The notes: a model not told the origin generated them from the sequence alone. Numbered from the stretch's first letter, positions 2,196-51,206 are shown. The stretch: 64,000 nt of DNA from Candidatus Omnitrophota bacterium (GCA_022711115.1 JAKLFP010000001.1:453183-517182); one strand, 5' to 3'. Made by a program: numbers and translations.

Positions 2196-4013
2196 ATGAC
2201 TACAAAAAATTTCGCGGCCATTGTGGTTGGAGCCGGTCACGCCGGAGTCGAAGCCTCTCTCGCCATTGCAAGATGCGGCTTCCCGGTTCTTGTGCTCACG
2301 ATGGATACGAAAGCCATCGCGCGTATGTCCTGCAACCCGGCCATTGGCGGTTTAGCAAAAGGCCACATCGTCCGGGAAATCGATGCTCTTGGAGGAGAAA
2401 TGGGTCTGGCAACGGACGCCACCGGAATCCAATTTCGAATGCTCAACAAATCCAAAGGCCCAGCGGTTTGGGCGCCGCGAGCCCAAGCGGACAAAAAACA
2501 GTACGAGCTTTACATGAAAAAAGCTCTCGAATCCGAAAAAAACCTTACACTCAAACAAGGCCAGGTTGTTGAGTTGCTCGTACAAGATGGAAAATGCCAC
2601 GGAGTGCGAACGAAAGAAGGCGATGAATTTTTCGGTGAGCATGTCATTTTGACCACGGGAACTTTTCTGCAAGGGTTGATTCATGTTGGCGAAGAGCATC
2701 ATCCCGGCGGGCGACGTGACGAACCTCCTGCCGTGGGGCTTTCGGATTCTCTGAGGCAATGCGGGATTGAACTTGTTCGTTTTAAAACAGGAACGCCGCC
2801 AAGAATACATCAAAAAAGCATTCGATGGGAAAACCTCGAAAAGCAGGACGGCGATGAGCCGCCGCCGGCGTTTTCATACCGGACAAAAAAATTGGCTGTC
2901 GAGCAAATGCCGTGCTATTTAACGCATACGAATGAAGCCGTCCACGACATTATTCGGACAAATCTACACCGATCCCCTCTTTACGCCGGGAAAATCCTTG
3001 GAGTCGGGCCGCGGTATTGCCCGTCCGTTGAAGATAAAGTTGTAAAATTTCCAAATAGAAAAAGCCATCAGATCTATTTAGAACCCGAGGGACGGAATAC
3101 GGATGAGATTTACGTCAACGGATTCTCGACTTCCCTGCCAAAAGACATTCAGAAAGAAGCGCTTCATCGGATTTTCGGGCTTGAGGATGCTGAAATAGTA
3201 AAATTCGGTTATGCGATTGAATACGATGCCGTTCCGCCGACGCAGTTGAGACACTCACTCGAAAGCAAAAAAATTCAAAATCTTTTCTTTGCGGGACAAA
3301 TTAACTGCACCTCTGGCTACGAAGAAGCAGGCGCCCAAGGTCTTATGGCAGGATTTAATGTGATACGCAAGCTTCGAGGAGAGCAGGAGTTCGTTCTGGA
3401 GCGCAACGAAGCTTACATCTCCGTGCTTGTGGATGATCTCGTGACCTGTGGTACGAACGAACCGTATCGCATGTTTACGTCAAGAGCGGAATTCCGGTTA
3501 CTGCTTCGTCAGGACAACGCTGACCAAAGGTTAATGAACTATGGATACAAGTTCGGCACCATTTCAAAAGAAACATATGATGAATTTAAAAATAAAATGG
3601 GAAGAATCGAAAAAGAAAAAGAAAATCTGAGAGAAAATAAAATAAAAAATGACAGCCTTTACAAATATATCAAGCGTCCCGAAATATCATATAAAGCATT
3701 GATAAAAAATAACTTACACTCATGCAATCTTAACGATGATGAAATCCATATTCTTGAAACAGAAATAAAATATGAAGGCTATATTTTGCAGCAGCAAAGC
3801 GAAGCAAAGAAATTCGAGAAGCTCGAAAAGAAAAAAATTCCGGAAACAATTGATTACGATGCTGTGAAAGGAATCGGACGCGAAGCAAAAGAAAAACTTA
3901 AAAAAATCAAACCAGAATCCATCGGGCAAGCCTCAAGAATTCCAGGCATCTCTTCTTGCGACTTATCGCTTCTGGCAGTTTACCTCAGGAAAAAAGCAAA
4001 AGATCTTCAATAA
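2196..4013 (+). CDS. mnmG: tRNA uridine 5-carboxymethylaminomethyl modification enzyme MnmG (GidA)
   Basis: 605 aa. N-terminal FAD-binding motif VVGAGHAGVEA and full-length similarity to MnmG/GidA. No mnmE, rsmG or jag is seen nearby. Confidence 0.9.
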   Translation: MTTKNFAAIVVGAGHAGVEASLAIARCGFPVLVLTMDTKAIARMSCNPAIGGLAKGHIVREIDALGGEMGLATDATGIQFRMLNKSKGPAVWAPRAQADKKQYELYMKKALESEKNLTLKQGQVVELLVQDGKCHGVRTKEGDEFFGEHVILTTGTFLQGLIHVGEEHHPGGRRDEPPAVGLSDSLRQCGIELVRFKTGTPPRIHQKSIRWENLEKQDGDEPPPAFSYRTKKLAVEQMPCYLTHTNEAVHDIIRTNLHRSPLYAGKILGVGPRYCPSVEDKVVKFPNRKSHQIYLEPEGRNTDEIYVNGFSTSLPKDIQKEALHRIFGLEDAEIVKFGYAIEYDAVPPTQLRHSLESKKIQNLFFAGQINCTSGYEEAGAQGLMAGFNVIRKLRGEQEFVLERNEAYISVLVDDLVTCGTNEPYRMFTSRAEFRLLLRQDNADQRLMNYGYKFGTISKETYDEFKNKMGRIEKEKENLRENKIKNDSLYKYIKRPEISYKALIKNNLHSCNLNDDEIHILETEIKYEGYILQQQSEAKKFEKLEKKKIPETIDYDAVKGIGREAKEKLKKIKPESIGQASRIPGISSCDLSLLAVYLRKKAKDLQ

Positions 4014-4150
4014 AGATATTTCTCATAACCTCCAAGGCCACATTGAATCGATATCCAAAGAGATTCATATAAAGCTTAATCAATATATTTTTTTAAAGAA
4101 TGCAGTTATATTATCTTGCCAAATATACATATATAAAAAATCTCATATAG

Positions 4151-5392: not shown

Positions 5393-6355
5393 ATGATTAT
5401 GAAAAAAGCCCTTGGCAAAGGATTAAGCGCATTAATCCCTGATAGCTATGTTAAGGAACAACAAGACGCAGCCGTTGCAACTCAATACGAGGAACAAAAA
5501 CAAGCCGTTGTCGAAACTTTACCGCCAAAAGACGAAGTTTTAATTCAAAAAGATCTCGCCTCTGAAGCTTTTCAGCTTTTGCCTATAGCCAAGATTATTC
5601 CCAACGAAGATCAACCGAGAAAGAAATTTAATAACGAAACAATCGAAGAGCTTGCGAATTCCATAAAAGAAAAAGGCGTTTTGCAGCCCATTATTGTTAA
5701 GCGAGTCAATGAAAGTCAGTACAAATTAGTTTGTGGCGAAAGGAGATTTCGCGCAGCTTCTCTTTGTGGCCTTTCCGAAGTCCCGGCGGTAATCAAGGAT
5801 GTTGCCACAGAGGATTTTTTGGAATGGGCCTTGATCGAAAACATCCAACGGGAAGACTTGAATCCTCTGGAAGAAGCCGAAGCGTATCAGAGGCTGGTTG
5901 AAGAAAGAATGCTTTCTCAGGAAGAAGTTGCGAAACGCGTTGGTAAAAACCGAACAACCGTGACGAATATTCTAAGGCTTTTAAGATTACCCGACGAGGT
6001 GAAATTGTATTTGTCGGAAGGGCGGCTTTCCTCAGGACATGCCCGCGCGCTTTTGGGATTGTTGACACCGGAACATCAAAGACATATGGCGAAACGGATT
6101 GTGGAAGAGAATTTATCGGTCCGTCAGGTGGAAGCCATTGTCGGCCGCAGCGTTGCGCATAAGAGAAAAGCAAAAACAGCACGTCACCTCAGCGCCGAGA
6201 TCGTGGATCTCGAGACAAGACTGACGCATTTTCTTGGGACTCAGGCAAAAATCTATCCTAGGAAGAATCAAAAAGAAGGACGCATTGAAATCCAGTACTT
6301 TTCTTTGGACGATCTGGATCGCGTTCTTCAAAAGATAGGACTTCCTCGGGGGTAA
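5393..6355 (+). CDS. parB: Chromosome partitioning protein ParB/Spo0J
   Basis: ParB N-terminal box (GKGLSALIP), the ParB/Srx motif VCGERRFRAA, and an HTH region. Follows parA directly. Confidence 0.9.
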   Translation: MIMKKALGKGLSALIPDSYVKEQQDAAVATQYEEQKQAVVETLPPKDEVLIQKDLASEAFQLLPIAKIIPNEDQPRKKFNNETIEELANSIKEKGVLQPIIVKRVNESQYKLVCGERRFRAASLCGLSEVPAVIKDVATEDFLEWALIENIQREDLNPLEEAEAYQRLVEERMLSQEEVAKRVGKNRTTVTNILRLLRLPDEVKLYLSEGRLSSGHARALLGLLTPEHQRHMAKRIVEENLSVRQVEAIVGRSVAHKRKAKTARHLSAEIVDLETRLTHFLGTQAKIYPRKNQKEGRIEIQYFSLDDLDRVLQKIGLPRG

Positions 6356-41737: not shown

Positions 41738-43429
41738 TCAGGCGGGTCTTCCTAGAAAGAATCCCTGACCGTATTTAACGCCGATTTCTTTTAGCCGTTG
41801 CAGATCTTCCTCAGACTCGATCCCCTCGGCAATAACTTCCGAGTTCAAATCCTCTGCGATCTTCAGAACGCGGCGCATAGAACGCTCCACCTGTGGGTTT
41901 TTGGATATCCCAATAACGTATTTCTTATCAAGTTTAACGACATCCGGCTCTAAAAGTATAAGACTTTCAAGGCATGTATTGCCAAATCCCACGTCATCTA
42001 CAGCGATCTGAATCCCATAATTCTTAAAAGTTTCAACGGGGCCAATCAGATGAGAAGGTTCGCCGAGGATTTGCTGCTCACTAATTTCCAGGCAATAGTT
42101 TTGAGCGGGGCAGTTTACAGAGAGTTTTTCAATGAGCTCCTCAACCTGGAGGTCAATGATGGTCGCTGGAAATAGATTGATATGGCGGTGCATTTGAGCC
42201 GGAAGTTCCGATGAAGCAGTGACGCAGGAACGGAAGCAATGACGGTCCACAAGCGTAAGGATGTTGTTTTCCATGGCGACTCGGAAAAAAACATCCGGCA
42301 TACAGACAGCGCCATTTTGAAGGCGGGACAAAAACTCATAGCCGATCACTGCTTGGTCCTCGAGGCGCACAATCGGTTGTTTGAGCGCGAAAAAATCATT
42401 TCCCTTGCGTAAAATTTCCGGCAAAGGGGATGGGGAGGTGGTAGGTACCCTTTCTTTAGGTCTCTCGAGTTCATTGTAGGAAATACAATTTTTTCCATTT
42501 GCTTTACTTCGTCTTAAAAGGGGATCGGCAATCGCCAGCAATTCGTCAACCGAAGTGATTTGCTCAGGGACTGGAGTGACACCGATGCTCGCGGTGACGC
42601 GGAACGTCTCCTTTTCCCCGAGAGAAATCGTAGTGTGGGAGATAGCTGATTTCAGCCTTTCGGCAAGTTGAAGGCCTTCATTCAATTCGGTTTTTGGAAG
42701 AATAAGGATAAATTCATCACCGCCGACTCTTGCAATATGATCAGAAAGCCGGACAGCATCCCTTATCTGCTTGGAAGTTTCTTTAAGAAGAATATCTCCC
42801 ACCGGATGCCCAAGAGAATCATTGATTTTTTTAAAATTATCGATGTCAATAACAAGGGCCATCATGTCCCAGCCCTCGCGGATCATAAGCTGGATTTCAC
42901 GATTTAACGCCTGTTGTAACCCACTCCGATTGTAAAGTTCGGTCAAAGGATCTAAGGCAGCCATCTTTTCAAGGCGGAGATTGGTTTCGCGAAGCCTTCC
43001 GGTGACGGATGCGAGCTTTTCCTTAATACGATGCCGGTCAATGGCGTGATGAATAATTCTCAGCAACAGTTTGGAGTTAAAGTCGTTTTTGACAACATAA
43101 TCATCAGCTCCCTTGCGGACAGCATCGATTGCCAATGCGTCATTATCAAGCCCTGTCATGATGACAATCGGGGTATGTCTAGCTTGCGCGTGAACCTTAA
43201 TAAAAGTCTGTATGCCGCTTGAATCCGGGAGCACTAGATCAAGCAAGATCAAGTCCCATGAGTTTTCTTGTAACAAGTCAAGGGCCTGTTGCAGGTCGAG
43301 CGCGCAAGTAATTTGAAGAGGCGGGTTCTTTTCTCTGGTGAGGCGTATCTTAAGTATGCTGGCGAACTCGGGATCATCTTCCACAAGCAAAAGCTTCAGA
43401 CTGGGTTGTATGAATTTTTCGCCGTTCAT
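41738..43429 (-). CDS. Response regulator with REC-GGDEF-EAL architecture
   Basis: REC (LLLVEDDPEFASILK...LILLDLVLPDSSG). GGDEF with an intact RVGGDEFILIL. EAL domain with variant EFLSR, DDVGFG, KLDK and EGIESEE motifs. Confidence 0.85.
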   Translation of the reverse strand: MNGEKFIQPSLKLLLVEDDPEFASILKIRLTREKNPPLQITCALDLQQALDLLQENSWDLILLDLVLPDSSGIQTFIKVHAQARHTPIVIMTGLDNDALAIDAVRKGADDYVVKNDFNSKLLLRIIHHAIDRHRIKEKLASVTGRLRETNLRLEKMAALDPLTELYNRSGLQQALNREIQLMIREGWDMMALVIDIDNFKKINDSLGHPVGDILLKETSKQIRDAVRLSDHIARVGGDEFILILPKTELNEGLQLAERLKSAISHTTISLGEKETFRVTASIGVTPVPEQITSVDELLAIADPLLRRSKANGKNCISYNELERPKERVPTTSPSPLPEILRKGNDFFALKQPIVRLEDQAVIGYEFLSRLQNGAVCMPDVFFRVAMENNILTLVDRHCFRSCVTASSELPAQMHRHINLFPATIIDLQVEELIEKLSVNCPAQNYCLEISEQQILGEPSHLIGPVETFKNYGIQIAVDDVGFGNTCLESLILLEPDVVKLDKKYVIGISKNPQVERSMRRVLKIAEDLNSEVIAEGIESEEDLQRLKEIGVKYGQGFFLGRPA

Positions 43430-44221: not shown

Positions 44222-45868
44222 TCAAGCGGGCATTCCCCAGTAGTATCCTTGGCCGTATTGCACACCGAGTTCTTTTAGAGCTTCAAGATCCTCCCGATTT
44301 TCAATGCCTTCGGCGATAATCTTGGTATCAAGGCTGCCCACAACATGCAAAAGCCGCCGCAAAACCTCTCGTCGGCCTTTATCATGAGCGACATCCCTGA
44401 TAATGCCTTTATCTAATTTGATGACATCAGGCTGGAGAATAATGAGACTCTCAAGACAACTTCGCCCGAATCCCACATCGTCAATGGCAATACATATACC
44501 GCGTTTTTTGAATTCCGTTATTGCTGGCACAAGATAGGACGGATCTCCCAGAATCTGCTGTTCGCTAATCTCAACACAGTAGGACCCGCAAAGACTTGTG
44601 GGCGGGAATAACCGGTCAAATTGCTCGGTTTGAAGTCCTGCAAGAGTAGAAGGAAAAAGGTTTAAATGTTTCTCGTAGGCGGCCGGGACTTTATACGAAG
44701 CCGCCATCGTTGTTTCAAGACAATGATGATCGACGGCGAGAAGAATATTGCCTTCTCGGCTGAAATTTAAAAATTCTTCCGGCATTTCAAAACCGGGGAT
44801 AGTCGAACGGGACAAAAACTCGTAGCCGACCGTTTTTTCTTCAGAAAGGTCCCAAATCGTTTGCTTGACCGCGTGAAAACAACGGCCTGATTTGAGCTGT
44901 TCAATAACGTTTTCAGTCTTTTCTTCCTTGCCATCCTCAAAGCTGACACGGTTCTTCCCAAGTCGCTTACTCTTTGCAAGCGCTCCATGGGTTTGCTCGA
45001 GAAGTTCCTCGATAGAAAGATTTCGTTTTGTGACATTGATAACCCCAAAACTTGCTGTGATACGTATCTCTTGACCGCTTAGGGACATAGCCGGGGTTCG
45101 GCTTATTGCAAGGCGGAGTCTTTCGCAAAATCGAGCCGCCTCTGCCGAGCGAGTGTCCGGCAGCAGGATGATAAACTCATCCCCGCCGATTCGAGATACA
45201 TAATCTTCAAGGCGAATGGTATTTTTCAAAATTTTTGCGATTTCCTGAAGGACAATATCGCCTACCGCATGTCCAAAAGAATCGTTGATGGGTTTAAAGT
45301 TGTCTAGATCCAGCAAAATGACCACAAGATTCGAGCCCTCACGAGCGGAGACTTGGAGTTCCCTGGAAAGGACGCGTTGCAAACCGCGCCGGTTAAGCAA
45401 TTGGGTCAAAGGATCCAGCGAAGAAAGCTGTTCGAGACGCTTGTTAAGTTCTTCGAATTGTTTTTTTTGATGATGGCGTTCAATCGCATAATTCAAAATG
45501 CGGAAAAGGACTTTTCGATCGACGTTCCCTTTCACCACATAATCCTGAGCACCTCTTTTAACGGCTTCAAGGGCTAGCGCATCATCATCCATGCCGCTCA
45601 GGATCACAAAAGGGACATCTTTGATTACGGAGGCTAATTTTTCAAAAGTTGCGATACCGTTGCTGTCCGGTAAACCGAGATCAAGAAGAATTAAATCAAA
45701 TTTCTTTTCGCAGAGGATTTGCAAAGCAGACCCAAGGTTTGTCGCGACTTCCACCTCAAAGGAAGGTTGCTTTTCGGAAAGGAGATTAAGTTTTAAAAGG
45801 TTGGTATAGTCAGGGTCATCTTCCACAAGCAGCATTCTTTTGCTTGCAGGAATGGTATTTTCAGTCAT
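44222..45868 (-). CDS. Response regulator with REC-GGDEF-EAL architecture (paralog of 41738..43429)
   Basis: REC (MLLVEDDPDYTNLLK). GGDEF (RIGGDEFIILL). EAL with the same EFLSR variant, DDVGFG, KLDK and EGIENRED. Confidence 0.85.
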   Translation of the reverse strand: MTENTIPASKRMLLVEDDPDYTNLLKLNLLSEKQPSFEVEVATNLGSALQILCEKKFDLILLDLGLPDSNGIATFEKLASVIKDVPFVILSGMDDDALALEAVKRGAQDYVVKGNVDRKVLFRILNYAIERHHQKKQFEELNKRLEQLSSLDPLTQLLNRRGLQRVLSRELQVSAREGSNLVVILLDLDNFKPINDSFGHAVGDIVLQEIAKILKNTIRLEDYVSRIGGDEFIILLPDTRSAEAARFCERLRLAISRTPAMSLSGQEIRITASFGVINVTKRNLSIEELLEQTHGALAKSKRLGKNRVSFEDGKEEKTENVIEQLKSGRCFHAVKQTIWDLSEEKTVGYEFLSRSTIPGFEMPEEFLNFSREGNILLAVDHHCLETTMAASYKVPAAYEKHLNLFPSTLAGLQTEQFDRLFPPTSLCGSYCVEISEQQILGDPSYLVPAITEFKKRGICIAIDDVGFGRSCLESLIILQPDVIKLDKGIIRDVAHDKGRREVLRRLLHVVGSLDTKIIAEGIENREDLEALKELGVQYGQGYYWGMPA

Positions 45869-46284: not shown

Positions 46285-47373
46285 ATGATTTCATACAATT
46301 TATTAAAACCTAAGACAATTTGGGAAATATCTCCAGAAACGGATCTTGCCAATATCCGAGGGGGCACCTTTCCTTCAAAAATGCATTTAAGCTTGACCGA
46401 GGCCTGTAATCTAACGTGCAGACATTGTAGGCGCGGGCATCATTTTGTTCGAAAAAACGAAATGTCAAAAGAGATGCTAGATCATATTATTCATGATTTT
46501 TTCCCCTATATCTGTGCCTTGCGAATTGGCGGGAGCGATCTAGGCGAACAAATGCTTTCACCTTATTTTAATTATTTTTTAGGTCAAATTCGAAGATACC
46601 CCATCGATGTTGAACTGGTCACAAACGGGACATTCCTGTCAGAAGATAACGTTGAAGAACTCGTTTCTTCCTTGGCGATTATTTATTTGTCGCTGGAGGG
46701 AATGAACGAAAATTACGAAAAAGTCAGAGGATTTAAATGGAATCAGTGGGTCAAAAATCTTGAGCTGTTGTTAAAGAGCAGGGAGCGAAGTAAAGGACGA
46801 AGGCCTCTGGTCAATCTGTTAGTCACGACATTAAGAAGTTATCAAAGCAACTATTTTAAATTGTTGGAATTTGCCAAAGCAAAAAAAATCGATGGAATCT
46901 CTTTTAGAAATTTCCGCCCTCTTTGTTCGAAAGAAAAAAAAGAATCATTTTTATTCGACGAAGAAAAACACAATCTTTTTTATAATCAAATCAAAAAGAA
47001 AGCAATGGAATTAGGGGTGGCGGTTTCGTGCCCGCCGCCGTTTCCTGTCGGCAATATGAAACCTATCTCGTGTTACCGCAAACCGTGCGGGCAACCCTTT
47101 GAAGTCTTTGGAATCCAAAGCGGCGGTGAAGTTATTCCGTGTTGCAACAGACCGGTTGATCTGGGGGATTACAGCCCCGGATATGCTAATATCATGGCGA
47201 GTTGGACGTCCGAAGCTTTTATAAATTTAAGGAAAACTGTTAATTCAGAAAATCCGTTGCCAGTTTGCCAACATTGTGGAGTTGCAGTGAGTAACCCTTA
47301 TGAGACGAGACCTGTTTTTTTGTCGTTTCAACAAAAAATCCGGAGCTTTTTTTGTCATGGGAGGGAAAAATAA
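46285..47373 (+). CDS. Radical SAM protein with C-terminal SPASM/twitch-like Cys cluster
   Basis: CNLTCRHC (Cx3Cx2C) near the N-terminus. C-terminal Cys-rich region (CPPPF...CYRKPCGQPF...PCCNRP...CQHCG). 362 aa. Confidence 0.7.
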   Translation: MISYNLLKPKTIWEISPETDLANIRGGTFPSKMHLSLTEACNLTCRHCRRGHHFVRKNEMSKEMLDHIIHDFFPYICALRIGGSDLGEQMLSPYFNYFLGQIRRYPIDVELVTNGTFLSEDNVEELVSSLAIIYLSLEGMNENYEKVRGFKWNQWVKNLELLLKSRERSKGRRPLVNLLVTTLRSYQSNYFKLLEFAKAKKIDGISFRNFRPLCSKEKKESFLFDEEKHNLFYNQIKKKAMELGVAVSCPPPFPVGNMKPISCYRKPCGQPFEVFGIQSGGEVIPCCNRPVDLGDYSPGYANIMASWTSEAFINLRKTVNSENPLPVCQHCGVAVSNPYETRPVFLSFQQKIRSFFCHGREK

Positions 47374-47480
47374 TAAAGAAGCGGATCAACTTTAACCTGT
47401 TTTCAATAAGGAGATTACAGGAATATTTTTAGCCCCACCACTGCTGGGCTAAACTCCTGTATCGAATTGCCTCGGCAAAA

Positions 47481-47990
47481 CTAAACATGAAACCCAATCG
47501 GCGATTTGGGTTTTGACAGTTGCGGTTCTAACAACTCTTTGATTGCCTGAAAGACGATCTTGAATTGATGGTCATATTTTTTCTCCATTGTCTCGATTTT
47601 CTGCCGCAATTCCTTATGACTCGCCAGCATTTCCCTTAACTTCGTGAATGTCCGCATGATTTGTATATTCACTTCCACGGCTCTCTCGCTATTGAGGATG
47701 CTGGATAACATTAGGATGCCACGTTCGGTGAAAGCATAGGGGAGATGTCCATCGAGGTGTTGTCTCGAAGGTATCGCAAAATGCGATACCATAGCGTGAA
47801 CCTCTTTTAAATTAAGCCGGAACATGAAATCATAGGGGAAACGTTTGATGTTCCGTTTTACTTGCTCCCTTAGCCTAATTGGTTTTACTCCGTAAAGAAT
47901 CGCTAAGTCTTTATCGAGCATAATTTTCTGCCCACGAAGCAGAAATATCTTATTTTGAATGATTTCTTGTGGGATTAATTTTGCTGTCAT
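47481..47990 (-). CDS. ORF6N-domain (phage antirepressor/KilA-like DNA-binding) protein
   Basis: LRGQKIMLDKDLAILYGVKPIRLREQVKRNIKRFPYDFMFRL matches the ORF6N domain. Start set at the ATG (MTAKLI) with AAAGGA upstream; the longer track ORF would read through the operator-like repeats. Confidence 0.7.
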   Translation of the reverse strand: MTAKLIPQEIIQNKIFLLRGQKIMLDKDLAILYGVKPIRLREQVKRNIKRFPYDFMFRLNLKEVHAMVSHFAIPSRQHLDGHLPYAFTERGILMLSSILNSERAVEVNIQIMRTFTKLREMLASHKELRQKIETMEKKYDHQFKIVFQAIKELLEPQLSKPKSPIGFHV

Positions 47991-48020: not shown

Positions 48021-48047
48021 GTGACAGTCACCAAAGGTGACAGTCAC
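48021..48047. promoter_or_regulatory. Tandem 11-bp palindromes GTGACAGTCAC-caaag-GTGACAGTCAC (putative operator)
   Basis: Two identical self-complementary 11-mers separated by 5 bp, directly upstream of the ORF6N gene start. Confidence 0.5.
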
Positions 48048-48161
48048 TAATTCCACCACTGCCGGTCGAGCGAGCGGTATTGGATCGCCTCGGCGATGTG
48101 CTCACTTTGGATTTGTTCAGATCCCGCTAAGTCACTGATCGTTCGGGCGATTTTAAGTATC
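48047..48161 (-). pseudogene. Duplicated 3'-terminal fragment of comM (remnant)
   Basis: On the minus strand it translates to ...[37 protein letters not shown]. The intact comM C-terminus is ...[37 protein letters not shown]. 115 bp, about 83% identical to 49516..49630, with no indels. Confidence 0.7.
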
Positions 48162-48336
48162 CGAACAAGGATTTGCTCTATACAACCTACGAATATCCCG
48201 ACTTTGTGCCGACCGTAATCATCAGATGGGAGGGGTTGGTAGGCATCGGGGTTTAAATAGGGGTCTTCAAGTTACCGGCGAAAGGGGAAATCCTTAGGCC
48301 TTTACAAATAAGAATTATTACTATATAGTTTCGGGC

Positions 48337-48765
48337 ATGAAACGCTTGCTTGAAGAAAAGGATGCCTTCCACGACAAATGCCGGGAGCGCGGACTAAAGC
48401 TCACGCCTCAGCGACTGGCGATTTATGAAGCAATGCGCTACTCGAAAGAGCATCCCTCCATCGACATGGTCTATCAAAAGATCAAGAAAAAATTCCCTCG
48501 AATTTCGTTTGATACGGTTTACCGGACGCTTATTACACTCTGCGATATCGGACTTGTAAAACCTGTAGAAGGGTATGGTTACACAAGGCGTTTTGATCCC
48601 AATACGGGCCAGCATCACCATTTTCATTGTGTTAAATGCCAGAAGATCGTCGATTTTTACGATCAAACTTATGACCGATTAACGGCTCCCTCAAAAATAG
48701 CGCCGGGCTACAAAATCTTGAGCAAAAAGGTGGTGGTTGAGGGCCTTTGCCCGGATTGCAGCTAA
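48337..48765 (+). CDS. Fur-family metalloregulator (Fur/Zur/PerR type)
   Basis: N-terminal wHTH (LKLTPQRLAIYEAM). Metal-site motifs HHHFHCVKCQK and C-terminal CPDC. A TTTACA-17 nt-TATAGT promoter lies immediately upstream. Confidence 0.8.
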   Translation: MKRLLEEKDAFHDKCRERGLKLTPQRLAIYEAMRYSKEHPSIDMVYQKIKKKFPRISFDTVYRTLITLCDIGLVKPVEGYGYTRRFDPNTGQHHHFHCVKCQKIVDFYDQTYDRLTAPSKIAPGYKILSKKVVVEGLCPDCS

Positions 48766-48917
48766 AGAATTTTTTTTGGCTTTAGAGTAATAATAATTAC
48801 GATTTAGTAAATCAGCGCAAATTCAAGGAGGTGGCCAATCGAGAAAATAAAGCGTGATAAGCGGATGCAGTAAATAATATAAAAATATGGATATCAACCC
48901 AAAAGGAGAAAACTATC

Positions 48918-49412
48918 ATGTCAAACGATAAGTATACATCGATCGTAAAACTTGACTTCCAGTATGCGCACAGATTTATGAATTATCCAGGAGAGGCAAG
49001 CTATCTTCATGGACATTCGGGATTGCTAACGATCGAAATTGAAGGTGATTTAAATAAACATAATTATGCCTACCCAGTAAAAGAGGCGCAAAAATTAGCA
49101 TGGGCAGTAGCCGACAACTTCATGCATGCAACAATTTTTCAAGAAGGCGACCCTTTGCTTGATTTAGTGTTGCAGGGTTATGAAAAAACTGGAATAAAAG
49201 GCACAACAAATAGATTTGGGACGCCTGCGAAAGCTCTCAACCACGAGCTGGTAAAATCATTTCCTGAAAGCAGAGTCGCTGTTAGCAAAGGGCCATCTAC
49301 TTGCGAATGGTTCTGCACGGTATTCTATGAACTATTGAAAGACAAGTTGAATATTAAGAAAATAGAATTCCGTTCTTCTTCGTTGAACTGCGCATCAAGA
49401 ACGTTTAATTAA
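48918..49412 (+). CDS. 6-pyruvoyl-tetrahydropterin synthase/QueD-fold protein, atypical
   Basis: LDFQYAHRF...ASYLHGHSGLLTIEIEG matches the PTPS/QueD pattern FEAAHRL...CxxxHGHSF. The Cys of CxxxHGH appears replaced (ASYLHGHS). Confidence 0.55.
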   Translation: MSNDKYTSIVKLDFQYAHRFMNYPGEASYLHGHSGLLTIEIEGDLNKHNYAYPVKEAQKLAWAVADNFMHATIFQEGDPLLDLVLQGYEKTGIKGTTNRFGTPAKALNHELVKSFPESRVAVSKGPSTCEWFCTVFYELLKDKLNIKKIEFRSSSLNCASRTFN

Positions 49413-49515
49413 AAAACAGTCTATAGTAAAAGACATCCACAGGGGCGGTTCTCCTTTAAATGATTGGACCAGCTTGAGCTGCCGAGAACCGTCCCTGGGT
49501 TTACGCCCATTGCCG

Positions 49516-49630
49516 TTAACTCCACCACTGCCGGTCGAGGGAACGATATTGAATAGCTTCTGCGATGTGGTCGGATTGGATCTGTTCGCAACCAGCTAAG
49601 TCGCTGATCGTTCGGGCGATTTTAAGAATC
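49516..49630. repeat. comM 3'-end copy B of an imperfect 115-bp direct repeat (partner at 48047..48161)
   Basis: By manual alignment there are about 20 mismatches over 115 positions and no indels. Identical blocks: CCACCACTGCCGGTCGAG and CTGATCGTTCGGGCGATTTTAAG. Confidence 0.7.
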
Positions 49631-51036
49631 TTATAATAAGCGCGGGCGGAAAGGCGCAGTTCTTTCATGGCCATTTCGATCAGTTTCCGGCCTTGGACGT
49701 CCGGTGTTGCAAAACTTTTAATATCTCGAGGGGACATTTGAGAGTTAGTGTCATAAGGTTTTTGCCGGTAGCGTGCTTTTTGGATCTTACGGCAAGCACA
49801 CACGCGGCTTCGGATAGATGCCGAATCCTCAGCAAAGGTTTCCTGGCTGGTCAGAGTTTGAAATGAAAGGGCAGGCACTTCGATCTGAATATCAATACGG
49901 TCCAGGATCGGCCCCGAGATCTTGGACCTGTATTTGTGGATCTGTCCCAAAGAACAGCGGCATGTTCTGTTTCTATCGCCAAGGTGCCCACACATGCACG
50001 GGTTCATGGTCGCGACCAAAAGAAAATTGGCAGGATAAGAGACCTGGTTTTTTGCGCGGGAGATAGTGATACATCCATCTTCAAGCGGACCGCGGAGGAT
50101 TTCCAGAGCATCACGACGAAATTCTGGAAACTCATCGAGAAAAAGCACCCCTCCATGGGCAAGGGATATTTCGCCCGGTTTAGGCTGTGTCCCACCACCG
50201 GCAAGGGCAATAGCGGAAGATGTGTGATGAGGCGAACGGAAGGGCCGTTCGCGAATGAGGTCACATCCTTCTGGAATCGATCCTGACACACTATGGATTT
50301 TGGTAATTTCCAGAGCTTCTTCAAAATCCATGGGAGGAAGAATGCTGGGGATACGGCGAGCCAGCATGGTTTTCCCGCTGCCAGGTGGTCCTATAAAAAG
50401 TAGTTGATGATTCCCAGAAACAGCGATCTCAATGGCGCGTTTAGCGGCTAACTGACCTTTTACCTCGGAAAAATCCAGAAATCCCTGTTGCGGCGGGGTA
50501 TTTTTATATGCACTGTTGCTGATAGGTTCAATCGGTTTGTTTCCGTTTAAAAATTCAACGGTTTCTTTTAAATCTTGAACAGGAAAGATCACCGTTCCCT
50601 TTGCTAGCGCGGCTTCAGCGGCATTTTTTGAAGGCAGAATGAAAGAATGGTTCTTCAGACCTGTCGTGATCACGAGGGCACCCTTCAAAGGGCGTAACGC
50701 GCCGTCCAGGGCTAATTCGCCGAGAAAGGTATAATTTGCAAGCTTCTCAGGAGAAATCACGCCATGGCAAGCAAGAATGCCGAGAGCTATGGGGAAGTCA
50801 AAAGCAGCGCCCTCCTTTTTGATATCTGCCGGAGCTAGGTTAATGGTGATTTTGTCAGCCGGGATCTGGTACCCGCTGTTTTTAATCGCCGTGCGGACCC
50901 GCTCTCTGGCCTCTTTGATGCTGGTGTCGGGCAGGCCGACCACAATGAGTTGGGGAAGGCCGTTACTAATATCGACCTCAATATCAACTGGGAAGGCATG
51001 AATCCCTAGCGCAAAAGCACTTTTAATACGTATCAT
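49516..51036 (-). CDS. comM: YifB/ComM-family Mg-chelatase-like AAA+ ATPase
   Basis: 506 aa. N-terminal Lon-like domain, Walker A GPPGSGKTM, and a C-terminal ChlI-like region. Confidence 0.9.
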   Translation of the reverse strand: MIRIKSAFALGIHAFPVDIEVDISNGLPQLIVVGLPDTSIKEARERVRTAIKNSGYQIPADKITINLAPADIKKEGAAFDFPIALGILACHGVISPEKLANYTFLGELALDGALRPLKGALVITTGLKNHSFILPSKNAAEAALAKGTVIFPVQDLKETVEFLNGNKPIEPISNSAYKNTPPQQGFLDFSEVKGQLAAKRAIEIAVSGNHQLLFIGPPGSGKTMLARRIPSILPPMDFEEALEITKIHSVSGSIPEGCDLIRERPFRSPHHTSSAIALAGGGTQPKPGEISLAHGGVLFLDEFPEFRRDALEILRGPLEDGCITISRAKNQVSYPANFLLVATMNPCMCGHLGDRNRTCRCSLGQIHKYRSKISGPILDRIDIQIEVPALSFQTLTSQETFAEDSASIRSRVCACRKIQKARYRQKPYDTNSQMSPRDIKSFATPDVQGRKLIEMAMKELRLSARAYYKILKIARTISDLAGCEQIQSDHIAEAIQYRSLDRQWWS

Positions 51037-51206
51037 GAACTATGCCCCCTTTATTTTCACAGAAACAAGCTTGCTTTTTGAAGACTCGAAACTTATAATG
51101 ACTCTTTCGAACAGAGAGAAGGTTAAGTTATTTAAGTTATAATCATAATTATTATAATTTTAAATCATTAAACTATAGGTGTCAACCTCTTCTTGAAAAA
51201 AGATCT

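Follow-up and report, generated by a model that had tools for sequence, protein, structure and literature searches.

The stretch of DNA analysed here, called the window below, comprises 64,000 nucleotides of a Candidatus Omnitrophota genome (GCA_022711115.1, JAKLFP010000001.1:453183-517182) and contains a small two-gene cassette lying between comM and a second copy of the comM 3′ end. The comM gene (49516..51036, minus strand) encodes a YifB/Mg-chelatase-like AAA+ protein of 506 residues. It is intact and full length, with all three Pfam domains (ChlI, Mg_chelatase, and Mg_chelatase_C), and the C-terminus of its product agrees with the clade consensus. An identical ComM protein was found in Candidatus Omnitrophota metagenome-assembled genomes and is annotated as YifB in one of them. 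The current 3′ end of the gene, codons 470-506 plus the stop (copy B; 49516..49630, minus strand), recurs on the same strand at 48047..48161 as a displaced end (copy A), and a truncated third end (copy C; 47429..47476, minus strand) stands directly after the stop codon of an ORF6N-domain gene. These three copies are in direct orientation and bound successive units, a layout shared with two of our comparison loci (L087 and L171).

The cassette unit spans 1,469 bp and consists of copy B, an inverted repeat, a gene for a PTPS-fold protein, a gene for a Fur-family regulator, and a stretch beside copy A that we call X (48152..48256). The regulator (48337..48765, plus strand) and the PTPS-fold protein (48918..49412, plus strand) are the only genes between copies A and B in the Pfam annotation. 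This content agrees with the original prediction, as does the replacement of the catalytic Cys of the PTPS fold (here Ala27).

Copies A and B are identical at 95/115 nucleotides (82.6 per cent) in a gap-free alignment, and within the 64-kb window they find each other at blastn E = 2.4e-30 and tblastn E = 5e-20. Reading frame and stop codon are intact in both. The original prediction had described just such a repeat, of about 83 per cent identity with frame and stop kept. It had counted two conservative amino acid changes between the copies, and the correct number is three (C/S, D/E, and S/N, copy B versus copy A). Sixteen of the twenty nucleotide differences (16/20) fall at codon position 3. 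When twenty random substitutions were simulated, a mean of 13.9 residues changed and a stop was introduced in 57 per cent of trials, and none of 100,000 simulations gave three or fewer residue changes (P < 1e-5). The repeat is thus neither a chance match nor low complexity. The excess of third-position differences and the scarcity of residue changes indicate that the two copies diverged inside working comM genes of different lineages, and from the pattern of substitutions one of the pair must be foreign. Their identity (95/115) lies within the range between species for comM ends in this clade (75-97/115), so that copies B and A differ by as much as copy B and the comM ends of other species do. 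Copy C encodes AEAIRYRSLAQQWWG followed by a stop and is recovered by tblastn in the window at E 1.8e-4. Permissive tblastn and blastn searches found no fourth copy beyond a radical SAM gene (45.8-46.3 kb) or elsewhere in the window.

Related loci and the attachment core

The best species-representative genome is only 63 per cent identical in ComM, too far for an empty-site test. Comparison loci were therefore taken from the protein database (72-81 per cent ComM identity) and from metagenome contigs. Several of them share the flanks of the window on both sides. The flank on the comM side runs GlmS, glycoamylase, sigma factor, MerR, TPR, AccA, YkuD, and DUF212, then comM, and on the other side come a response regulator, a response regulator with GGDEF and EAL domains (RR-GGDEF-EAL), and a PAS kinase. 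Eight relatives that share these flanks (L088, L089, and L170-L175; 72-80 per cent ComM identity) have the ORF6N gene straight after comM. The distance from the comM stop to the ORF6N start is within about 30 nt in L171/L172 and L173-L175. L171/L172 (ComM 80 per cent) then carry a gene for 112 amino acids, X with a decayed comM end, and a peptidase S26 gene; L173-L175 (78 per cent) carry a short comM fragment, three pilin-like genes, and SWIB. ORF6N follows the comM stop directly in L088, L089 (both 72 per cent), and L170. A ninth locus, L087 (79 per cent), has two small membrane-protein genes after comM, followed by X with a comM end, ORF6N, and a third comM end. The Fur and PTPS genes are absent from the comM loci of L087-L089 and L170-L175. 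Since eight syntenic relatives lack the pair, the cassette is an insertion; the comparison of related comM loci that had been proposed as a check thus favours the original reading. The window and L087 share a near-identical frame of X, copy A, and ORF6N, filled with different cargo.

Every displaced comM copy in this group (in the window, in L087 with two copies, and in L171) begins at the same place, cTTAAAAtc, corresponding to ComM codons 471-473. In the intact comM of the window this places a putative attB crossover, the TTTTAA core, at 49620..49625 (TTAAAA on the comM strand; codons L471-K472-I473), as judged from the copies and from the junctions of large serine recombinase (LSR) elements in relatives. 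Two ComM homologues with aberrant C-termini led to a recombinase at the junction, and LSR elements cut comM exactly at the TTAAAA core in L167-L169, L176, and L177. In L167-L169, comM ends ...YYKVLK and is met by a convergent open reading frame (ORF) of at least 523 residues that starts with the serine-recombinase catalytic motif GYGRVSQPDQ. Homologues of the L167 recombinase carry the Pfam domains Resolvase, Recombinase, and Zn_ribbon_recom, and its top NCBIfam matches, CcrB and XisF, are each below cut-off. In L176 the LSR abuts a truncated comM beside DUF212, YkuD, and AccA; the element to which it belongs measures at least 10 kb and also encodes a RepB-primase and a helicase. L177 has the same arrangement of LSR and truncated comM, with a gene for a small resolvase lying upstream of that for the LSR, and L179 combines an LSR module with ParB. 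Autonomous relatives with an LSR (L176, L177, L179) thus coexist with recombinase-less units (the window, L087, L171). A scar of site-specific integration at the comM 3′ end, as originally proposed, is borne out both by the syntenic relatives that lack the cassette and by the recombinases found at the same junction in others.

Some elements of this kind leave comM whole. In L184 (7460-7598), the last 45 codons of the LSR gene are antisense to an intact comM 3′ end, so that both strands of 135 nt are coding. Two relatives (P0125 and P0127) have similar comM-antisense-like tails, and the P0128 recombinase reads into the comM end in the sense direction, at the same codon. A further recombinase lies away from comM: in L179/L180 (~6277-6345) it is 62 per cent identical to that of L167 and sits beside lpxB, with about eight codons resembling the comM B arm (SAYYKILK) at the junction. 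The element may have used a secondary site here, or an attL may have been transported to this position.

X, on the plus strand beside copy A, can be read as the other half of such a junction. It contains CCGAACAAGGATTTGCT at 48161-48177, and its 105 bp are kept in L087 as well as in L171, where 69 nt are inserted. Across these three lineages its frame shows conservative substitutions and an identical stop position. The frame of the L167 recombinase runs on into X across the core (...PANLCSVHFK, then YPNKDLL...). Moreover, the P arm in the window, AGCAAATCCTTGTTCGG, and the attL (P′) arm of L167, CCGAACAAAGATTTGCT, form an inverted repeat matching at 16/17 positions, with both arms equally far from the core. 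The arm alignment scores 29, compared with 17 +/- 2.2 (maximum 26) in 300 shuffles. A core-centred block of 69 nt is identical at 68/69 positions between the window and L087, with flanks at ~75-80 per cent, a degree of conservation that fits a constrained recognition site. On the strength of the continuous frame and the inverted-repeat arms, we read X together with copy A as attR, with X as a coding remnant that would comprise the C-terminal tail of an LSR and the P arm of its attP. This would place attP within the 3′ end of the recombinase gene, the last 32 codons of which (YPNK...GIGV, 48158-48253) would be split off on integration.

How the cassette could have arrived

We consider it likely that small cassettes without a recombinase are arrayed in tandem at this locus, at an LSR attachment site in the 3′ end of comM. 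Incoming DNA would have recombined at the core, giving a xenologous replacement of the last 37 comM codons (copy B) and displacing copy A, the resident end, further downstream along with the adjacent ORF6N gene. X would be the P arm of the element's attP, with the LSR gene split by integration, and the ORF6N cassette bounded by copy C would reflect an older event of the same kind. Two routes may be proposed. By accretion or cis-mobilisation, a donor LSR element would have excised via a distal attR, carrying with it comM end, cargo, and P arm; it would have integrated in a new host and then left alone via the proximal attR. This would leave comM with a foreign end, the cargo, a P arm, and the resident end. 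Cis-mobilisable elements (CIMEs) are described as behaving in this way (PMC5704250), and the same was proposed for the ssrA islands of Dehalococcoides (PMC3146451). Alternatively, a comM-restoring LSR element of the L184 type may have integrated and later lost its recombinase by deletion. Both routes would use canonical reactions only, and they appear inseparable on these data. A simpler course, in which a canonical serine integrase would insert a P-core-B′ cassette directly, was set aside, as pairing by such enzymes is reported to be restricted to attP with attB (PMC3783163).

The only candidate trace of an LSR in the 64-kb window is X itself, the putative 105-bp tail remnant. Searching with fifteen LSRs by tblastn against 45.8-49.7 kb and the whole window returned comM-derived tails only, and Pfam annotation of ~34-64 kb contained no integrase, tyrosine integrase, Tns gene, or transposase. 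The absence of an integrase from the searched window accords with the minimal or decayed island first suggested.

Several observations weigh against this interpretation. The fifteen LSR homologues all stop at or just past the core, and an uninterrupted LSR gene with an X tail, as expected of an excised attP, is present on no contig. Neither the reconstructed attP pattern nor the L167 recombinase matched anything in scans of viral contigs. For the frame match of X by itself, the prior is one in three. Elements of the LSR family with the arm that pairs with X (L167, L176) leave comM truncated, and the example that restores it, L184, belongs to a subfamily only ~39 per cent identical. A P-core-B′ cassette cannot simply insert itself; each arrival route is multi-step and none has been observed. 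In addition, the different cargo within the same frame in the window and L087 is explained equally well by homologous replacement. The cassette deviates weakly in composition (GC 0.42 versus 0.45 for the window). Finally, among contigs carrying the identical ComM or ORF6N protein, which served as the within-species set, the cassette is present and 100 per cent identical in every readable assembly of the species, with no presence/absence polymorphism, empty site, alternative junction, or circular form. It looks fixed in the species and apparently inactive.

The alternative that survives best, although we think it improbable, involves RecA only. Circular or linear DNA carrying a comM 3′ fragment together with the Fur and PTPS genes would have entered the cell, for example by transformation, and recombined without any site-specific enzyme for the cassette. 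This could have been a Campbell-type single crossover within the 115 bp of homology, or a double crossover between comM and an already present frame of X, copy A, and ORF6N, with X as a relic of an older, unrelated LSR event. Different cargo within a conserved frame, as in the window and L087, is what allelic replacement predicts, and the exact blocks of 23 and 19 nt common to copies A and B could host a crossover. Loci of other phyla (L039, L077, L107, L136) also show duplications of the comM 3′ end, with other boundaries and no integrase between the copies, and recombination of P-B′ with attB is not expected of serine integrases (PMC3783163). Against this, homology within the clade begins precisely at the LSR core in every copy. 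The RecA explanation also leaves the origin of the first frame of X plus duplicate unexplained, so that an LSR event is still required. A repeat of 115 bp at 83 per cent identity is, moreover, a poor substrate for RecA.

It is very unlikely that the cassette comes from a decayed element of another type, be it an island with a tyrosine integrase or a comM-homing Tn7-like transposon such as the Acinetobacter AbaR/Tn6022 islands. Tyrosine-integrase islands do typically replace the 3′ end of a gene, yet neither a tyrosine integrase nor a Tns gene or transposase occurs across ~34-64 kb of the window, the junction in relatives is occupied by serine recombinases only, and the duplication is 115 bp long and diverged, not a 5-bp target-site duplication. 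The Acinetobacter resistance islands that the original prediction named as a precedent at comM are Tn7-like transposons, with a different mechanism; the recombinase type at the junction in relatives is an LSR, and Tns-type genes are lacking in the annotated part of the window (~34-64 kb). That the Fur and PTPS genes are native neighbours of comM, and the repeat a local tandem duplication that drifted or a chance match, is hardly credible: the weak compositional deviation and the fixation of the cassette in all sampled genomes of the species would suit such an origin, but the blastn E of 2e-30, the near-purely synonymous divergence (P < 1e-5; incompatible with drift of a non-functional copy), the lack of the cassette in eight syntenic relatives, and the presence of the Fur-PTPS pair at a different locus in L181 all speak against it.

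Cassette genes and their neighbours

The Fur-family regulator has 142 residues and is PerR-like. It matches Pfam FUR at 94 bits (cut-off 23), and its best NCBIfam match is PerR, at 117.6 bits and hence below the 180-bit cut-off. The PTPS-fold protein (164 residues; Pfam PTPS E 2e-13) is a COG0720 paralogue that fails the equivalog test for QueD, scoring 38.2 bits against TIGR03367 with a cut-off of 89.25. Ala27 occupies the position of the QueD catalytic Cys in the motif C-x-x-x-H-G-H. The 29 PTPS homologues share A27, H31, H33, H70, C129, and E130 without exception and H18 in at least 90 per cent of cases; His31 and His33 are zinc-ligand-like. A single-sequence search against the PDB gave no match, and QueD structures were matched only with a family profile. 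Judged by these conserved positions, the protein represents a conserved COG0720 subfamily and no broken enzyme.

The PTPS protein has homologues of 50-96 per cent identity in Dehalococcoidia, Firmicutes, Treponema, and Kiritimatiellaeota. In L181, an adjacent Fur-PTPS pair, with a PTPS protein 95 per cent identical to that of the window, lies at the end of a cluster that includes genes for NifU, ZIP, rubrerythrin, and FeoAB. Nucleotide homology between the window and L181 (76 per cent) is confined to 48299-49414, that is, to the Fur-PTPS pair and little else. L183 has a PTPS protein of 71 per cent identity beside two ZnuA genes. In these other genomes the paralogue stands in loci for iron or zinc uptake. 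Two short elements accompany the pair. A conserved box before the Fur gene, ACAAATAAGAATTATTACTATATAGT (48304..48329), is identical to L181 at 25/26 positions in surroundings that are otherwise unalignable, and is a candidate promoter or operator. Upstream of the PTPS gene lies an AT-rich near-palindrome, TAATAATAATTACGATTTA (48788..48806), conserved in L181 without its flanks, which may be a Fur-family operator. From these boxes and gene neighbourhoods we infer that the pair is a self-regulated metal or redox module, probably acting in the response to metal limitation or oxidative stress. A further near-palindrome, AATCATAATTATTATAATTTTAAA, is found at 51141-51164 in the divergent intergenic region of comM and DUF212. 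It is 83 per cent complementary to the box upstream of PTPS and resembles a 7-1-7 box of the Fur/PerR type; the cassette regulator might thus bind at comM too.

Assemblies of the species show a peculiarity at the PTPS gene. Three independent assemblies (L002-L006, L186-L189) break inside the gene from both sides, at ~49131-49303, and none breaks at the repeats. PTPS clusters at >90 per cent identity comprise 131-525 sequences, which lie on very short contigs. The breaks most likely reflect near-identical PTPS copies in several genomes of the same samples.

Between the convergent stops of PTPS and comM, an inverted repeat, GGGGCGGTTCTC / GAGAACCGTCCC (49442..49453 / 49484..49495), was read from the sequence. 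It places an inverted pair of the motif GAGAACCG(T/C)CCC just past the comM stop. The same motif occurs singly in L087 (~3445-3465), at the distal end of the ORF6N cassette where it abuts the third comM copy, and also after ORF6N in L089 (~4125-4145). The motif might serve as an arm in att sites of a second family, or represent a REP-like (repetitive extragenic palindromic) element.

Beyond copy A, the ORF6N-domain gene (47481..47990, minus strand; 169 residues, Pfam ORF6N E 1.5e-29) had been proposed as a possible further remnant of the island. It is instead a conserved neighbour of comM in the clade and would belong to an older cassette bounded by copy C, the counterparts of which are a fragment after ORF6N in L173 and a full-length comM end after ORF6N in L087. 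Between the copy A stop and the ORF6N start, a palindrome, GTGACAGTCAC, appears twice, 5 nt apart (48021-48047), within a 36-nt segment that is absent from L087. The pair looks like an operator.

A radical SAM/SPASM gene (46285..47373, plus strand; Pfam) lies past copy C in a low-GC stretch that varies between lineages, relatives having a peptidase S26 gene or pilin-like genes plus SWIB at this position. The stretch has no detectable bounding repeat; the gene, first suggested as a possible further remnant, is at most a putative member of the array. Of the deviations in composition that had been looked for, those in GC content at third codon positions were found in two genes only, PTPS (z = -2.2) and radical SAM (z = -1.9), while overall GC content of the cassette departed little from that of the window. 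Further along, paralogous RR-GGDEF-EAL genes (41738-43429 and 44222-45868) stand 2484 bp apart; there is a single such gene in L171 and in L173, and the duplication is lineage-specific, bordering the variable region. In L170 (~2507-2640), a short insertion of ~125-130 bp, in which GGTGTCGCTTTC-like motifs are repeated, breaks comM after ...ARAY, a few codons ahead of the recombinase site. It resembles a miniature repeat element; behind it, both the comM end and ORF6N are intact.

Relation to known systems and meaning

Among known systems, SCC elements with their pseudo-SCC partners, the Dehalococcoides ssrA islands, and CIME accretion come closest. Staphylococcal cassette chromosome elements (SCC, SCCmec) and pseudo-SCC resemble the arrangement in the window in that they insert at the 3′ end of a conserved gene (rlmH) that is left intact, and in forming tandem composites in which some units have no recombinase genes. 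The best NCBIfam match of the L167 recombinase, below cut-off, is also of the CcrB type. The two differ in target (rlmH versus comM), in phylum (the window is from Omnitrophota), and in the repeat, a short core in SCC as opposed to 115 bp of coding gene end at 83 per cent identity. Unlike SCC, the elements described here apparently have their attP inside the recombinase ORF, and the cassettes are 0.7-1.5 kb long with no resistance genes.

In Dehalococcoides, tandem islands downstream of the single-copy gene ssrA are bounded by repeats of the ssrA 3′ end, and a module on the attL side, on the reverse strand, encodes a CcrB-like LSR of ~540 amino acids, a small serine recombinase, and ParB; many of the islands are without this module and were proposed to be cis-mobilisable (PMC3146451). 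Genes of the same set are found in L177 and L179. The Dehalococcoides islands differ in their RNA-gene target and 20-bp repeat, compared with an in-frame protein-coding end of which 37 codons are replaced in the window, and some of them keep the integration module, which no island in the window does.

Members of the magnesium chelatase/ComM family are known targets of LSRs: the sr1WO recombinases of phage WO integrate into a Wolbachia magnesium chelatase gene (PMC9203015). The likeness to the present clade, with LSRs acting on the YifB/ComM family, concerns the gene family. Phage WO prophages split and disrupt their target gene, as the elements of L167, L176, and L177 do, and neither a replacement 3′ end nor a recombinase-less cassette array is described for them (PMC9203015). 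Set against the known systems as a whole, the distinct features here are the phylum, the in-frame replacement of a 37-codon end, the very small cassettes, and the apparent attP in the recombinase ORF.

In CIMEs and site-specific accretion, elements that have lost their integration genes and kept attL and attR line up one behind another where a target gene ends, and a neighbouring element that is still functional can mobilise them in cis (PMC5704250). The cases described, of the ICESt1 type, involve tyrosine integrases and conjugative elements, unlike those of this clade, which have a serine recombinase and no transfer machinery that we identified. The Acinetobacter islands at comM (AbaR/Tn6022-type) are Tn7-like transposons with Tns proteins and a short target duplication. 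They share with the window the use of comM as a hotspot and differ in these Tn7-like features, none of which is present in the window as annotated over ~34-64 kb.

A second copy of the comM 3′ end, of 54-161 codons and within 10 kb of comM, is also found in unrelated phyla, with boundaries unlike those in the window. Such duplicates were seen at about 2/80 genome loci and about 8/80 metagenome loci (L039, L077, L107, and L136, also L103, L105, L120, and L128). The DNA between the copies encodes a 2365-residue protein with WG repeats, DUF6035, and a CoiA nuclease in L039, three metabolic genes in L077, AbiEi/AbiEii with a helix-turn-helix gene in L107, and a pair of AAA_21 ATPases in L136. None of these four has an integrase between its comM copies.

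The scar itself is ordinary: in the genome of the window it is fixed and apparently inactive. A bolder view, which we hold to be doubtful, is that comM-end units are live mini-cassettes, mobilisable in trans and moved by LSRs whose genes span their own attP, and that comM is a cross-phylum hotspot for regulatory and defence genes. The conservation of the 69-nt att block hints at cassette mobility and is only suggestive. If this view were true, each integration would give the recombinase a tail of host origin in place of its 32 C-terminal residues and each excision would reverse the exchange, making an integration-state switch, and AbiE, the AAA_21 ATPase pair, and the giant nuclease protein would be examples of the hotspot. 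An attP inside the recombinase's own reading frame would, if borne out, be an uncommon arrangement for serine integrases.

For uncultured Omnitrophota, the locus provides a concrete att sequence, cTTAAAAtc (ComM codons 471-473) with its arms, together with the recombinase family that uses the site. The core lies in a motif conserved well beyond the clade, which may be of use in annotating mobile elements and also as a recombinase/att pair. A metal or redox regulator and its target gene can sit behind a core gene without any recombinase, and such modules are missed by island finders that rely on integrases.

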